Sequence record: NC_111505.1 | Source of the DNA: a phage | Length of the DNA stretch: 64,000 nucleotides | Reading direction: 5' to 3' (one strand) | Shown here: positions 42,273 to 47,060 of the stretch, piece after piece | How positions within the stretch are numbered: the first letter of the stretch is position 1 | How the letters are laid out: every line of letters begins with the position of its first letter | Translations under genes and position numbers: made by a program | Notes under the pieces: generated by a model | Seen by the model: the letters and a program-made list of their open reading frames with translations, nothing else | Databases searched by the model: none | What the model was told of the DNA's origin: nothing

Positions 42273-43058
42273 TTAGATAAAACGCTTGAACATAGAAGGT
42301 GATGAGATTGATGGAATCACACAAGGCAGCGCTACCTCCTCTTTCTCCAGGAAATTAATCGCAGAAGCTACACAGTCGGCCCAGTCGTCTTTTCTGTTAA
42401 ATGTTGATCTTTCCCCGTTGAACTTTTCAAGTTCAGTCAAAAATGCTTCCAAAGTGTCAGGATGGAAACTGGATTTTACAATCCTCACCATTCCTTGTTG
42501 GGCAAGATTGGCAAAAGGTGAGAACCTTGTCAGTTTAGATTTGTTGGAAGGCATCGGATCTTCTTCAACCCTGAACCCTTCGGCGAGCAAGGATCTGGAC
42601 GAGGTTAAGAACTCACTCTTACCTGCCTGACCGGGGTCCACAGAAAATACGATTATGCAATCATCTCCATCAAACTGCGCCTGTTTCCTGATGATCACAT
42701 CTCGTTCCCCAGCCTTTTTACAGAACTTACCTTCCAGACCTGTGGAATACCTACCGTCATCCACGTTCTCAGGACAATAATCCCCGGACAGGTAATAAAA
42801 ACCGTCGCTATCTTTACTTACCTTAACACTGGCAGTAAAGTCAGGAAATTTATTACCGGAAGTTCTCTCGGTTCCTGCCTTATCCCATGCCCTGCAAGAT
42901 ACTGATCCAAGAGGTACTCTATCGGCATCACGAAGGAAAGATCTTTGGAAATAGTTTGCACCCTCAGGTTTGGCAAACCAGTTGCCATGAAGAAGCTGGG
43001 CTTTTTCAAGCTCTGGTAGACCTTCAAGGAAAGCAAGGTATTCTGGGTTGTCTCTCAA
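42273..43058 (-). CDS. terL: terminase large subunit, C-terminal nuclease domain (second exon-like segment)
   Basis: RNase-H-like terminase nuclease motifs (IIVFSVDPGQAG ... DDWADCVA); ORF-track start is a TTG, so the reading frame may extend upstream to a splice junction. Confidence 0.7.
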   Translation of the reverse strand: MRDNPEYLAFLEGLPELEKAQLLHGNWFAKPEGANYFQRSFLRDADRVPLGSVSCRAWDKAGTERTSGNKFPDFTASVKVSKDSDGFYYLSGDYCPENVDDGRYSTGLEGKFCKKAGERDVIIRKQAQFDGDDCIIVFSVDPGQAGKSEFLTSSRSLLAEGFRVEEDPMPSNKSKLTRFSPFANLAQQGMVRIVKSSFHPDTLEAFLTELEKFNGERSTFNRKDDWADCVASAINFLEKEEVALPCVIPSISSPSMFKRFI

Positions 43059-44049
43059 GCAGACAGGATTATCGAATCCTTATATTCAAAGGTGGTCGCA
43101 ACACCACCCTCCGCACCATTACGTGCTGCTGCATGTTACCATGCAGAGTAGACTATATCACCACCCATCTCAGGGTGCTTCGCTTTTCGAGCGCCATAAG
43201 CTTGCGCCCTACTCCCTCTCGGGATAGTCGTTGAACTACATTACCAATCGTAATTGTTTGAAATATAGGTGTAAGTCTTACGGTCTTTTATTCCTTTAAC
43301 AACACTAAAACTTACACCCCACTTTTTAGCTATTTTATTTACACACAAAACCCTATCACTGAGATCTTCGCAGATACCTATTATCTTGTGCTCACTTATC
43401 CTATTAGAGGTTGGCACTTTTCTAAAGTTAAACTCTTTAGAAATATCCGGGTATACTGAGCCATTCTTTATACCACTTACAAGCGGTTGATTGACACCAA
43501 ACATTTCACAAATGTCTTTTACCCTTGCACCTTGCTCTAACAGTCTACATATTTCAAGGGCAGTAGCATCATCTAGGGACCTGTATTTATTGACATAGTC
43601 CTTTTTAAGTCCCATTTCATGAGCATGATGTGTGTTTTCCTCAGGTGTTGTCCACTCAAGGTTCCATGCGGCGTTATTTAACTTATTGCCATCAAGGTGA
43701 TTTACTTGAGTTTTCACGCTAGGATTATCATTATCAACAAAAGTCATAGCAATAACTCTGTGAACGAGCACTTGGAACTTTTTACCGTCCTCGCACAAAG
43801 TTACCATAGCATAGCCAGTCTTTTTCTGCACATTAGGATGGAGGAATTTATTAGAATACAGACTGTAAATTCTGCCATCGTATGTAGCACAATAATGATT
43901 GTAGCCTAAAAAGCCTAAATTTTTCATTTCAAACATCTCCCTACTACAGGTTCGGAAGGGTAATTATAGCTGCTGATTGTCCGTTTAGCAATCGGATTTT
44001 CCAGCAATTAACGAAGTTATTCGACGTGCATTTCTGCACGAAGCCACTA
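43059..44049 (-). mobile_element. intervening sequence in terL carrying the HNH ORF (candidate group I intron)
   Basis: About 990 nt separate the ATPase and nuclease ORFs; flanks 43059-43240 and 43937-44049 are GC-rich with multiple hairpins and no long ORF. Confidence 0.5.
43241..43936 (-). CDS. HNH homing endonuclease (231 aa) inserted within terminase large subunit gene
   Basis: HNH motif (VNHLDGNKLNNAAWNLEWTTPEEN...HH) plus C-terminal DNA-binding-like region; flanked by the two terminase halves. Confidence 0.8.
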   Translation of the reverse strand: MFEMKNLGFLGYNHYCATYDGRIYSLYSNKFLHPNVQKKTGYAMVTLCEDGKKFQVLVHRVIAMTFVDNDNPSVKTQVNHLDGNKLNNAAWNLEWTTPEENTHHAHEMGLKKDYVNKYRSLDDATALEICRLLEQGARVKDICEMFGVNQPLVSGIKNGSVYPDISKEFNFRKVPTSNRISEHKIIGICEDLSDRVLCVNKIAKKWGVSFSVVKGIKDRKTYTYISNNYDW

Positions 44050-44799
44050 TCATTTAATGGTTGCGCCTATAAACGAGAATGACAACGGTCTTGGCTTGAT
44101 TTCCACACCTAGTCCATTGACCGTGGTGTATTTCTCTATTAACTCCTCTTTAGAGTCTCCCCAGATAAACTCACCGTCGCGTCGGATAAAATATCTTTTC
44201 TTACCACATTTCTCCGGATCTGGATACCCTTCATCGTCCAACCACCACCTAACCAGTTTGGCAAGCATGTGTTCTGAGTCGGGGTTACAACTGATAACCA
44301 TTCTTGATGGATACTTTGACTGAGATCGCAGACGAGACATCAAATAGTCTATCTGCTCCCATTCGAATTGCGTGCCTTCATCGAAGCAAACCATGGTGTA
44401 CTCAAGGCCTTGATGGTTAAGCTTATCTTGGACATACTCCATGTGGCAGTATTTTACAACAGCCCCCTTTTTGCTCCTGTCCCACTTGCCAGTGCTCGGA
44501 TCAAACCGTGGAAAAATAAATTTATGATCCTTCTCTCTAAATTTTGGCTTGATGTTCTCAGGGAGATCGCTGTAGATAGCTACTGCTTTAGGCCATAGAC
44601 CTCCTTCACCCTCCAGCTGCGGGGTTGTTCTTCGGAACATAACCACAGAGCTGTGTGGGTCATCAATAATTTTAAGCGGCATCAACTGCAGGAGGAACGA
44701 CTTACCTGAACCAGCCGCACCACCAATGACAAGAATGTCTGCATCGTTTTCTAGGATCATCTTCTGCTTTTCAGAACACGGTCCGTAAATCTTAGACAT
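44050..44799 (-). CDS. terL: terminase large subunit, N-terminal ATPase domain (first exon-like segment)
   Basis: Walker A (VIGGAAGSGKS) and Walker B (MVCFDEGTQF); ends at TGA 44050-44052. Confidence 0.8.
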   Translation of the reverse strand: MSKIYGPCSEKQKMILENDADILVIGGAAGSGKSFLLQLMPLKIIDDPHSSVVMFRRTTPQLEGEGGLWPKAVAIYSDLPENIKPKFREKDHKFIFPRFDPSTGKWDRSKKGAVVKYCHMEYVQDKLNHQGLEYTMVCFDEGTQFEWEQIDYLMSRLRSQSKYPSRMVISCNPDSEHMLAKLVRWWLDDEGYPDPEKCGKKRYFIRRDGEFIWGDSKEELIEKYTTVNGLGVEIKPRPLSFSFIGATIK

Positions 44800-45086
44800 T
44801 AACCTCTCTCCTTTGGAAACAGTGTTCTAATATAGTCTTGCAAAATGATCAATTTAGCCCTATCATTACTGCAAGACAGGTTATTATCCCTCATAATGCC
44901 AGAATTCACCGCATCAGGCGCACCTTTCTTTAAAGGTATAGCTTTAGCAGGAGGCTTCATAGCACCTTCGGGCGGTTTAACAATCAATCTTCCCACATCC
45001 GGAGGATCAATCTTATATTCTTTTTCGACACTTGTCGCACATCCGCACAGCAGCAAGCAAGCAACTAATAATACGGTGGCTCTCAT
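44799..45086 (-). CDS. o-spanin (outer-membrane lipoprotein, Rz1-like)
   Basis: Signal peptide with lipobox (LLLCGCA); Pro-rich mature region; overlaps i-spanin by 4 nt. Confidence 0.6.
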   Translation of the reverse strand: MRATVLLVACLLLCGCATSVEKEYKIDPPDVGRLIVKPPEGAMKPPAKAIPLKKGAPDAVNSGIMRDNNLSCSNDRAKLIILQDYIRTLFPKERG

Positions 45087-45481
45087 CTACCCTCCTGATT
45101 AATGCTCTCATTATAGATATCTATAAGCTGGTCAGGGAGTGTTGACTTCTTACCTTCAGGTGATTGGAGGTAGATAATCTGCTTTTCTTTACCTGCCTTC
45201 TCAGCCATATTTAATTTATCCTGTAGGTCAGAAAGAGATTTTTCAAGGTTTTTAACCTCCTCTGCGTGGCCCATTTTAATTTTGTCGGCCTGCTTTTGTT
45301 GTTGGTCAAGGATCCGTTCCCACTTTAACTCTGTTGCTGACACACCTTCCTGATAAGCATCATTGAGCTTAGAGTTAAACCAATACACGGCCCCAAGATA
45401 AGCTATGCCTATAGCCGCTGCAAAAACTAAACCTTTTATGATCCCTCTGTATTTACTCATCAATGTTAAAACTGAAATCAT
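45083..45481 (-). CDS. i-spanin (Rz-like)
   Basis: N-terminal transmembrane segment followed by charged coiled-coil; paired with lipoprotein gene. Confidence 0.6.
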   Translation of the reverse strand: MISVLTLMSKYRGIIKGLVFAAAIGIAYLGAVYWFNSKLNDAYQEGVSATELKWERILDQQQKQADKIKMGHAEEVKNLEKSLSDLQDKLNMAEKAGKEKQIIYLQSPEGKKSTLPDQLIDIYNESINQEGR

Positions 45482-45948: not shown

Positions 45949-46290
45949 TTATGGTAGTTCTAAAAGTCCTGCATGTACGGCAGCATGACAATTTCTACAA
46001 AGTAATACACAGTTTTTAATTTCATTATCAATTCTTTGCAGACTCCAACCTCTCATTTGAGCAAATTTAGAGTCTTTAATTTTAGGATCTAAATGGTGAA
46101 TATCTAAAGAAACAATCCATTTATCGAACCCACAATTGATACATTTACCGCCTAACTTGTCTACAGCATACTGTCGTTTCTGCCTCCCAAGATTCATGGT
46201 GTACTCATTGTGACATTTCCCACATATAGTCTTTTTATGACCATAAAATTTACATGGATCTTCTTCCCCACAACGACTGCATTTGTGCAT
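45949..46290 (-). CDS. HNH endonuclease with Zn-ribbon (113 aa) lying between two halves of a tRNA-like gene
   Basis: CxxC...CxxC plus HNH motif (DIHHLDPKIKDS...NCVLLCRNCH); ATG at 46288-46290, stop at 45949-45951. Confidence 0.75.
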   Translation of the reverse strand: MHKCSRCGEEDPCKFYGHKKTICGKCHNEYTMNLGRQKRQYAVDKLGGKCINCGFDKWIVSLDIHHLDPKIKDSKFAQMRGWSLQRIDNEIKNCVLLCRNCHAAVHAGLLELP

Positions 46291-46336: not shown

Positions 46337-46411
46337 TGGTGGCCCTGGGTGGAATTGAACCACCGTCTGGCGATTATGAGTCGCTTGCTTGAACCTTCCA
46401 GCTACAGGGCC
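46337..46411 (-). tRNA. tRNA-Met (anticodon CAU; initiator, elongator or Ile-lysidine not distinguished)
   Basis: Hand-folded cloverleaf: acceptor GGCCCTG/CAGGGCC, anticodon loop CTCATAA, T-arm GGTGG/TTCAATT/CCACC, CCA encoded. Confidence 0.7.
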
Positions 46412-46412
46412 A

Positions 46413-46488
46413 TGGTGCTGATGGCAGGACTTGAACCTGCAACCTATTGATTACAAATCAATTGCACTGCCAATTGTGCTACATCAGC
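46413..46488 (-). tRNA. tRNA-Thr (anticodon UGU)
   Basis: Acceptor GCTGATG/CATCAGC, D-stem GCAC/GTGC, anticodon stem ATTGA/TCAAT with loop TTTGTAA, T-arm GCAGG/TTCAAGT/CCTGC, CCA encoded. Confidence 0.75.
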
Positions 46489-46492
46489 AAAA

Positions 46493-46591
46493 GGTGCTAG
46501 GTGATGGAATCGAACCATCTATGTATTCAACGACTACCTCGTCTATTTTCAGGATTAAAAATCCTCGCCCTTGCCAAAGGGCTTACCTAGC
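46493..46591 (-). tRNA. atypical tRNA-like element (~97 nt), anticodon ambiguous (possibly UUU)
   Basis: Good acceptor (GCTAGGT/ACCTAGC), D-arm (GCCC/GGGC) and T-arm (GATGG/TTCGATT/CCATC), but anticodon arm is a near-palindrome (AGGATTTTTAATCCT) and about 30 nt lie between anticodon arm and T-arm. Confidence 0.4.
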
Positions 46592-46689
46592 GCAATATGT
46601 TGACCATGTGGCTAGTCGGCGATGACGACTGTAACATTTGATAATCCGGTTCTGCTTCCGGCTTTCGCTTAATTACAAGGTCAACAATG

Positions 46690-46780
46690 TGGCGGAGAGT
46701 AATGGAATCGAACCATCATCGAGTCATCCTCAACGGGACGGTTTTCAAGACCGCTTGAGCACCATTGCTCCCTACCCTCC
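46690..46780 (-). tRNA. tRNA-Ser (anticodon UGA), long variable arm
   Basis: Acceptor GGAGGGT/ACTCTCC, anticodon stem GCGGT/ACCGT with loop CTTGAAA, T-loop TTCGATT, CCA encoded; 91 nt. Confidence 0.65.
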
Positions 46781-46894
46781 TTTATAAATTACACTGATAA
46801 TGACACTGATTTTCGAGCAGTTAGTGACTAGTATAAACGACGATAAACATCAATGCCATTATCTGTATGATTTATGCATTTAAAAATATAAATT

Positions 46895-46981
46895 TGGTGG
46901 GGAGTGGTGGAGTCGAACCACCCGAGTCGCAATGACAATAGATTTACAGTCTACACCGCTACCTCTACGGGATAACTCCCC
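46895..46981 (-). tRNA. tRNA-Tyr (anticodon GUA), long variable arm
   Basis: Acceptor GGGGAGT/ACTCCCC, anticodon loop CTGTAAA, T-arm GGTGG/TTCGACT/CCACC, CCA encoded; 87 nt. Confidence 0.7.
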
Positions 46982-46985
46982 AATT

Positions 46986-47060
46986 TGGCACCCCGTACTG
47001 GACTCGAACCAGTGTCAACGGCTTAGAAGGCCGCTGCTTTATCCACTAAGCTAACAGGGC
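46986..47060 (-). tRNA. tRNA-Arg (anticodon UCU)
   Basis: Acceptor GCCCTGT/ACGGGGT (two G-U), D-stem GCTT/AAGC, anticodon stem GCGGC/GCCGT with loop CTTCTAA, T-arm ACTGG/TTCGAGT/CCAGT, CCA encoded. Confidence 0.7.

Follow-up and report, generated by a model that had tools for sequence, protein, structure and literature searches.

Interruption of the terminase large subunit gene (terL) has been described for the rV5-like coliphages. In the rV5 paper, the section 'Introns in terminase' presents terL in three segments, one of them with a homing endonuclease (Kropinski et al. 2013, Virol J 10:76), and the RefSeq record of rV5, NC_011041, gives the gene as a three-piece join ('ORF64ABC', gp65) around the HNH gene gp66. 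The terL gene of LL12 was reported to be likewise interrupted in its announcement (PMC6658697), and the record of RudolfGeigy (BASEL collection) also joins terL. In the present study, a window of 64,000 nucleotides (nt) from the record NC_111505.1, a Vequintavirus (rV5-like coliphage, myovirus) with terL on the minus strand, was analyzed computationally. The results indicate, with a probability of roughly 0.93, that terL in this window carries a mobile group I intron at the codon for Ile248, with an open reading frame (ORF) for an HNH endonuclease of the I-HmuI type in its P6 loop. The element is a further copy of the intron annotated and published for the rV5-like phages and is, therefore, already known. 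The rV5 intron lies in the same gene at the same site, has the same length of 979 nt and the same HNH ORF, and is 97.0% identical at the nucleotide level over the whole intron; rV5 differs in having an extra ORF-less group I intron after codon 143 (84.9 bits; positions 768-1046 of locus L002), and the other differences are point differences only. An earlier note on this DNA, made from its letters, had read the split terL as interrupted by a candidate group I intron, and this reading is now supported by a covariance-model signal, by ORF-less copies, by covariation and by the restoration of the reading frame.

The locus consists of three ORFs, given here from 5' to 3' on the coding strand with lengths in amino acids (aa):

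44050-44799, minus strand: ORF of the terminase ATPase half, 249 aa, ATG start, Pfam Terminase_6N (E = 5e-17)
43241-43936, minus strand: ORF of an HNH homing endonuclease of I-HmuI type, 231 aa as listed, Pfam HNH_3
42273-43058, minus strand: ORF of the terminase nuclease half, 261 aa, nominal TTG start, Pfam Terminase_6C (E = 4.4e-7)

In the ORF list, all three minus-strand ORFs have the coordinates claimed for them in the earlier note, and the gap between the two terL halves, which was put at about 990 nt, is 991 nt.

The gene is split at Ile248 by an insertion of 979 nt, which is absent in the alignment from the intron-less alleles of SYGMH1 (L001) and of locus L004. The terL of SYGMH1 is a single coding sequence (CDS) of 1548 nt, with which the window aligns in two abutting blocks (query 1-795 and 1775-2651), and the identity of exon 2 to its 3' half is 99.7%. 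When the insertion was deleted in silico, a TerL of 515 aa was obtained that is identical to the intron-less TerL of SYGMH1, and in which Terminase_6N and Terminase_6C are contiguous in one polypeptide. The predicted peptide across the splice junction is SFIGATIFDNPVCLR, and the intron-less allele (SYGMH1 or ECP32) reads GGTGCAACAATTTTCGATAAT at the insertion site. The spliced TerL, in which Ile248 lies in the motif GATI/FDNP, had no match at E ≤ 0.01 among the PDB sequences. The parts of the interrupted gene are as follows:

44057-44799, minus strand: terL exon 1, the ATPase part with the Walker A motif GGAAGSGKS; its 3' end, ...GCA ACC AU, lies within codon Ile248
43078-44056, minus strand: predicted group I intron, 979 nt, modeled architecture of subgroup IA type, HNH ORF in the P6/P6a loop, omega-G at 43078
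42273-43077, minus strand: terL exon 2, the RNase-H-like nuclease part; it opens with A UUC GAU AAU CCU...

The downstream half has no ATG, as was observed before and was described as consistent with an exon joined by splicing. At 43058, the TTG encodes an internal Leu and is not a start codon; exon 2 begins at 43077, 19 nt upstream. Over these 19 nt the frame stays open and encodes the conserved residues F-D-N-P-V-C-L up to the TTG, and no Shine-Dalgarno (SD) sequence was found upstream of the TTG. These observations bear on a different explanation, in which the two halves are translated independently and then assemble as a two-gene terminase, with the HNH gene as a free-standing insertion between them. 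The halves do form two ORFs, which are entered as individual CDSs in several GenBank annotations. However, the second half would have to be translated with neither an ATG nor an SD sequence before its TTG, with conserved codons for F D N P V C preceding it in frame, and terL is uninterrupted in most close relatives, where it is identical to the spliced product. Translation as two genes is, therefore, considered extremely unlikely, and the ORF-less relatives described below provide a further point against it.

The positions of the splice junctions can be considered from the chemistry of group I introns, in which cleavage takes place after the U of the U·G pair in P1 and the intron ends in a terminal G. 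In the window, the exon sequence CCAU (44060-44057) pairs with the intron sequence GUGG in P1, where U44057 forms a U·G pair. At the other end, G43078 directly precedes A UUC GAU and is the sole G position that preserves the reading frame. Both the P1 U·G pair and the terminal G are invariant in 8/8 homologues. Because group I rules require these two features, the boundaries were set at 44056 and 43078, which is the most likely assignment and leaves the length at 979 nt. The alignment with uninterrupted terL homologues, which the earlier note had suggested, places the junction within codon Ile248 and gives a predicted spliced product equal to the intron-less TerL. The interval of 43059-44049, which was proposed there for the search for an intron core, is replaced by 43078-44056 as the most likely limits of the insertion.

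The exon next to the insertion also differs between the two kinds of allele. Exon 1 ends in ...GGC GCA ACC AU in all intron-containing alleles examined, whether or not they have the ORF, whereas both intron-less alleles examined read ...GG(U/A) GCA ACA AUU. The differing exon C (ACC vs ACA) is one of the bases that pair with the internal guide sequence, and this exon/guide difference between intron-containing and intron-less alleles is, as read from the sequences, a co-adaptation. The same C, in the region 44056-44070 of the window, may also mark the target of the endonuclease or its immunity.

The search for RNA families gave only tRNAs in the whole window at the Rfam gathering threshold. In a permissive Rfam scan of 42800-44300, two minus-strand matches to the group I intron family RF00028 appeared, one on either side of the HNH ORF, with partial scores of 34.2 bits (E = 1.3e-6 in the local scan) on the 3' side and 25.1 bits (E = 7e-4 in the local scan) on the 5' side; the covariance-model search proposed in the earlier note, therefore, returned a minus-strand group I signal on both sides. 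The 3' match contains the near-consensus J6/7-P7 GUUCAACGACUA, J8/7-P7 GAUAUAGUCUA and a P9 hairpin with a GUAA loop, and the 5' match covers P1, P2, the 5' strand of P3, P4 and P5. The gathering score of RF00028 is 50 bits, which neither match reaches because the model cannot bridge the 0.7-kb HNH ORF in the P6 loop. The ORF-less copies at the same site in VB-EcoM-WM (L005) and RudolfGeigy (L006) score 92.7 and 95.6 bits against RF00028 over the full model. These copies are 267-269 nt long, with identities to the window flanks of 94-100% on the 5' side and 97.7-98.8% on the 3' side. By BLAST, the 3' core also directly resembles insertions that many unrelated phages have in their nrdD, nrdE, DNA polymerase and terL genes, as is expected of a shared ribozyme core.

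The ORF-less intron, which is found in RudolfGeigy/Bas52, VB-EcoM-WM, JEP1 and others, occupies the same site and has the same P1-P5 and P7-P9.2 ribozyme sequence as the window intron. It differs in P6, which is a 23-nt hairpin instead of the P6/P6a stem with the 0.7-kb HNH loop of the window, and the sequence of the P6 stem is replaced. The retention of about 267 nt of covarying ribozyme in these relatives would be needless for a simple split of the gene into two, which argues against independent translation of the halves.

Apart from RF00028, no RNA family matched at the insertion; neither an Rfam group II match, nor a reverse transcriptase, nor terminal inverted repeats were found there. 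An insertion with an endonuclease gene could in principle also be a group II intron, an intein or an insertion sequence or other transposon, a view which has the bare fact of the insertion in its favor and nothing beyond it. The group II intron and the transposon were rejected on the three negative results above. The intein was rejected because in-frame stops follow straight after exon 1 (AAA UGA). The probability left for any such element is practically negligible.

For the window intron, a structure was written by hand from P1 to P9.2, including the P3/P7 pseudoknot, with 80 pairs in 13 helices. Its elements are listed below from 5' to 3' on the coding strand:

43959-44060, minus strand: 5' half of the ribozyme, from the Rfam alignment, the minimum free-energy (MFE) and centroid folds and covariation
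44060-44044, minus strand: P1, which includes the last 4 nt of the exon
44040-44025, minus strand: P2, with a GAAA loop
44016-44010, minus strand: 5' strand of P3
44006-43971, minus strand: P4/P5
43969-43959, minus strand: 5' strand of P6/P6a
43078-43245, minus strand: 3' half of the ribozyme, from the Rfam match of 34.2 bits, the centroid fold and covariation
43245-43236, minus strand: 3' strand of P6/P6a
43231-43225, minus strand: 5' strand of P7
43224-43213, minus strand: P7.1, with a GAGA loop
43209-43189, minus strand: P7.2
43184-43178, minus strand: 3' strand of P3
43177-43162, minus strand: P8
43155-43150, minus strand: 3' strand of P7
43146-43129, minus strand: P9, with a GUAA loop
43126-43113, minus strand: P9.1
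43111-43088, minus strand: P9.2
43078, minus strand: omega-G

The presence of P7.1 and P7.2 between P7 and the 3' strand of P3 is the hallmark of subgroup IA in the scheme of Michel and Westhof, which includes the T4 introns. On the modeled P7.1 and P7.2, the window intron is of subgroup IA-type architecture.

The structure was examined for covariation in an alignment of eight distinct homologues in which the P6 loop was masked, and which includes the introns of TH18 (79%) and of the Salmonella phage UAB_1 (67%), both taken from the GenBank phages and both at the same terL site as the window intron. All of the proposed pairs are standard in the window sequence (80/80), and across the eight homologues 97.9% of the cells are paired, a percentage that is inflated, as the compensatory counts are not, by the derivation of the structure from the same sequences. 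Changes on both sides were found for 23 pairs, as compared with 5.9 ± 1.7 in column shuffles, and none of the 500 shuffles reached the observed value. When the 3' partners were slid by 1-3 columns, the pairing dropped to 32-47%, with at most six compensatory pairs. The compensatory changes are present in P2, P3, P5, P6, P7.2 (two pairs), P8, P9, P9.1 and P9.2. P1, P4 and P7 are invariant among the eight homologues, and in P7.1 only one of the two sides changes (C-G to U·G); these four helices are, therefore, uninformative for covariation. P7 pairs perfectly and has a bulged C beside a G-C pair.

Folding of the flanks of the HNH ORF agreed with this structure. The MFE and centroid folds of the 5' flank recover P1, P2, P4 and P5, and the centroid fold of the 3' flank recovers P7, P7.1, P7.2, P8, P9, P9.1 and P9.2. 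The earlier description of both flanks as rich in hairpins thus holds as far as canonical helices appear in both folds; in fold strength relative to shuffles, it holds for the 3' flank (z = −3.4), and the 5' flank reaches only z = −1.5. The flanks were also described as rich in guanine and cytosine (GC), which is correct for the 3' flank (52%) and not for the 5' flank (42.5%), given a window mean of 43.8%; the HNH ORF has 36.5%.

A further explanation is that the intron has decayed and can no longer splice, in which case terL would be a pseudogene or would depend on a helper or trans-acting factor. In the CB7 study, one HNH-associated insertion did not splice (PMC7344957), and the window intron is under the Rfam threshold as a single unit. 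The low score is accounted for by the ORF in P6, however, and the core appears undamaged, with 80 of 80 pairs standard and the consensus nucleotides of J6/7, P7 and J8/7 intact. In addition, the same allele is found in many independently isolated plaque-forming phages, for which TerL is needed for viability. A dead intron is considered very unlikely because the core pairs and consensus nucleotides are intact and because the allele is common in plaque-forming isolates.

The endonuclease encoded in the intron belongs to the I-HmuI type. The ORF matches Pfam HNH_3 (PF13392) with 28.0 bits (cut-off 24.8) at residues 57-102, and weak helix-turn-helix matches appear besides HNH_3 in Pfam. Its sole match in the PDB is I-HmuI (1U3E, E = 3.6e-11, residues 8-151), and the alignment to 1U3E conserves the motif vnH-dGNk-NN...NL-W with the H...N...N core. 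The ORF lies wholly inside the loop closed by P6/P6a. Its first ATG is missing in the UAB_1 homologue (L010), for which reason the second ATG at 43927 (MKNLGF..., 228 aa) is favored and is probably the conserved start. A candidate SD sequence, GGGAG at 43941-43937, serves the ATG at 43927.

The ends of the ORF have possible relations to the RNA structure. The SD sequence GGGAG pairs with an upstream CUUCC in a weak hairpin of about −5 kcal mol−1 (window 43920-43966), which is kept, with a covarying partner strand, in the 79% and 67% copies (L009 484-535; L010 484-530). At the other end, the stop codon UAA (43243-43241) lies inside the 3' strand of P6a, and ribosomes finishing the ORF would, therefore, melt P6a. 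Arrangements similar to this SD hairpin and stop codon are known for the T4 introns. The SD hairpin is flagged here as a possible means of translational control and not as a finding. From the SD hairpin and the stop codon in P6a, splicing and synthesis of the HNH protein could be mutually exclusive on a single transcript; that the translation of HNH would be mechanically coupled to the folding of the ribozyme in the model is a tentative idea and appears unlikely. Free-standing HNH proteins assist the terminase in HK97-like phages, and by analogy the intron HNH might, more speculatively, assist the terminase during packaging.

In the proposed mechanism, terL would be transcribed as one pre-mRNA, in which the intron RNA would adopt the fold of the P1-P9.2 core. 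P7 would bind an exogenous guanosine, which would attack after the U of the P1 U·G pair (44057), and the freed 3'-OH of exon 1 would then attack after the terminal G (43078). The exons would thereby be joined as ...GCA ACC AU + A UUC GAU..., and TerL of 515 aa, with its ATPase and nuclease parts, would be translated. The HNH endonuclease would be translated from the P6 loop and would presumably nick or cut the intron-less terL near the insertion site in mixed infections. Recombinational repair would then copy the intron into the cut allele, that is, homing would occur.

The distribution of the intron was determined by megablast of the terL region against the GenBank phages, which gave 136 records, almost all of them Vequintavirus coliphages with 90-99% identity; seven of the 136 are Pseudomonas phages that match over a short stretch only. 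In about 100 records, the match is limited to the 1672 nt of the two terL halves, which adjoin each other there; 13 records cover the entire query, and another group covers the terL halves and about 270 nt of the insertion. In terms of alleles, the HNH intron is carried at an identity of at least 97% by 14 of the 136 records and as a 79% variant by four, and the ORF-less intron is carried by about 11, of which two are covered only in part. The other terL matches, about 100 in number, are without an intron at the Ile248 site. The HNH-intron allele is present with 97-99% identity in rV5, PDX, HdK5, SophiaRose and ECML-10. This patchy mosaic of presence and absence among phages of more than 95% identity is, judged from the alignments, what mobile introns would produce.

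A second intron site in terL follows codon 143. An ORF-less intron of 84-85 bits is found there in rV5 (L002), RudolfGeigy (L006) and SophiaRose (L008), in each at positions 768-1046, and an intron with an endonuclease VII-like ORF is found in HdK5 and ECP26 (L003/L004 768-1610; 47-48 bits). The intron at codon 143 is absent from terL of the window.

A scan of IMG/VR with the HNH protein gave two loci, one near-identical and one with 36% identity. In the latter (L014, IMGVR_UViG_3300036466_000002, positions 766-1700), the 36%-identical HNH protein of 226 aa is encoded directly after a truncated portal-like ORF, and a match to the 3' core of group I introns (35.9 bits) lies just downstream. As judged from its sequence, this region has the appearance of a related intron within a portal gene.

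Among the GenBank records, MG065644-MG065690 (H3-H6, H15-H21, H99-H102, H110-H115) are entitled 'Campylobacter phage' with the host Campylobacter jejuni. Their identity to the rV5-like coliphages across terL and the intron, about 95-97%, suggests that they are mislabelled or contaminant.

Several neighboring features in the window were also recorded. Directly upstream of terL are the i-spanin gene (45083-45481, minus strand) and the o-spanin gene (44799-45086, minus strand), with start and stop codons that overlap. The record of one relative labels the o-spanin 'capsid maturation protease', apparently in error. A free-standing HNH protein of 113 aa (45949-46290, minus strand; Pfam PF01844) with zinc-ribbon-like CxxC pairs is encoded between the tRNA cluster and the spanin and terL genes and has no associated ribozyme signal. 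The cluster of six tRNAs extends from 46337 to 47060 and includes a 99-nt element at 46493-46591 (minus strand), which ARAGORN gives as 'tRNA-???' with the four-base anticodon atcc and which has an Rfam tRNA score of only 37.5 bits. The rV5 paper lists the tRNAs Arg, Tyr, Thr, Met, Pro and Ser (Kropinski et al. 2013, Virol J 10:76), and the element at 46493-46591 may be the 'Pro' tRNA gene, either carrying an insertion or having an unusual anticodon loop.

The results have a practical consequence for annotation, in that terL should be given as one joined CDS (44799..44057 + 43077..42273, minus strand) in place of the two halves and the TTG 'start'; the listing of the halves as separate genes persists in several GenBank relatives. 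In biological terms, the element adds another copy to a well-known class of selfish elements and opens no new question. The terL alleles of Vequintavirus at more than 95% identity form a series of intron-less genes, genes with the ORF-less intron, genes with the HNH intron, and genes with the second site with or without the endonuclease VII-like ORF, which could be used for studying intron gain and loss and homing.

A number of points weigh against the interpretation of the insertion as a splicing group I intron at Ile248. The window intron is below the Rfam gathering score as a single match, so that its membership in group I is based on the ORF-less homologues and on the hand-built structure, which was derived from the same sequences on which it was tested. 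The boundaries given by plain alignment to the intron-less allele, 44055-43077 (AAAUG...AAGGA), are one base off the positions of the U·G pair and the terminal G. The predicted spliced codon 248 is AUA, as compared with AUU in the intron-less phages, although the protein would be unchanged because both codons encode Ile. The P10 pairing is weak. In the literature, no direct splicing experiment was found for the rV5-type terL intron or for the phage of the window. The HNH-bearing terL intron of Pectobacterium phage CB7 was shown to splice by reverse-transcription polymerase chain reaction (RT-PCR) and sequencing (PMC7344957). CB7 belongs to the same subfamily, Vequintavirinae, and likewise has a group I intron in terL with an HNH gene inside it. 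Its exon 1 is 128 aa, as compared with codon 248 in the window, and the CB7 intron, inserted after about codon 128, was rejected as being the same intron. The splicing of CB7 is analogous evidence only, because the intron is located at a different site.

The intron of the window can finally be compared with more distant systems. The terL group I intron of Lactobacillus phage LL-H is given in the rV5 paper as shown to splice (Mikkonen & Alatossava 1995, cited by Kropinski et al. 2013). LL-H is an unrelated siphovirus, and the site of insertion is another one. In the DNA polymerase intron of Bacillus phage SPO1, as in the window, an endonuclease of the I-HmuI family is encoded in a phage group I intron; I-HmuI is the HNH nicking endonuclease of that intron. 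The two differ in the host gene and the phage, and the C-terminus of the window protein extends about 55 aa further. The T4 td intron belongs to subgroup IA2, with the I-TevI ORF looped out of P6. Like the window intron, it is a phage group I intron with P7.1 and P7.2, in which the endonuclease ORF is looped out of P6 and the intron structure can mask the ribosome-binding site. It differs in interrupting the thymidylate synthase gene instead of terL and in encoding a GIY-YIG instead of an HNH enzyme, and the likeness drawn here between the two is one of architecture.

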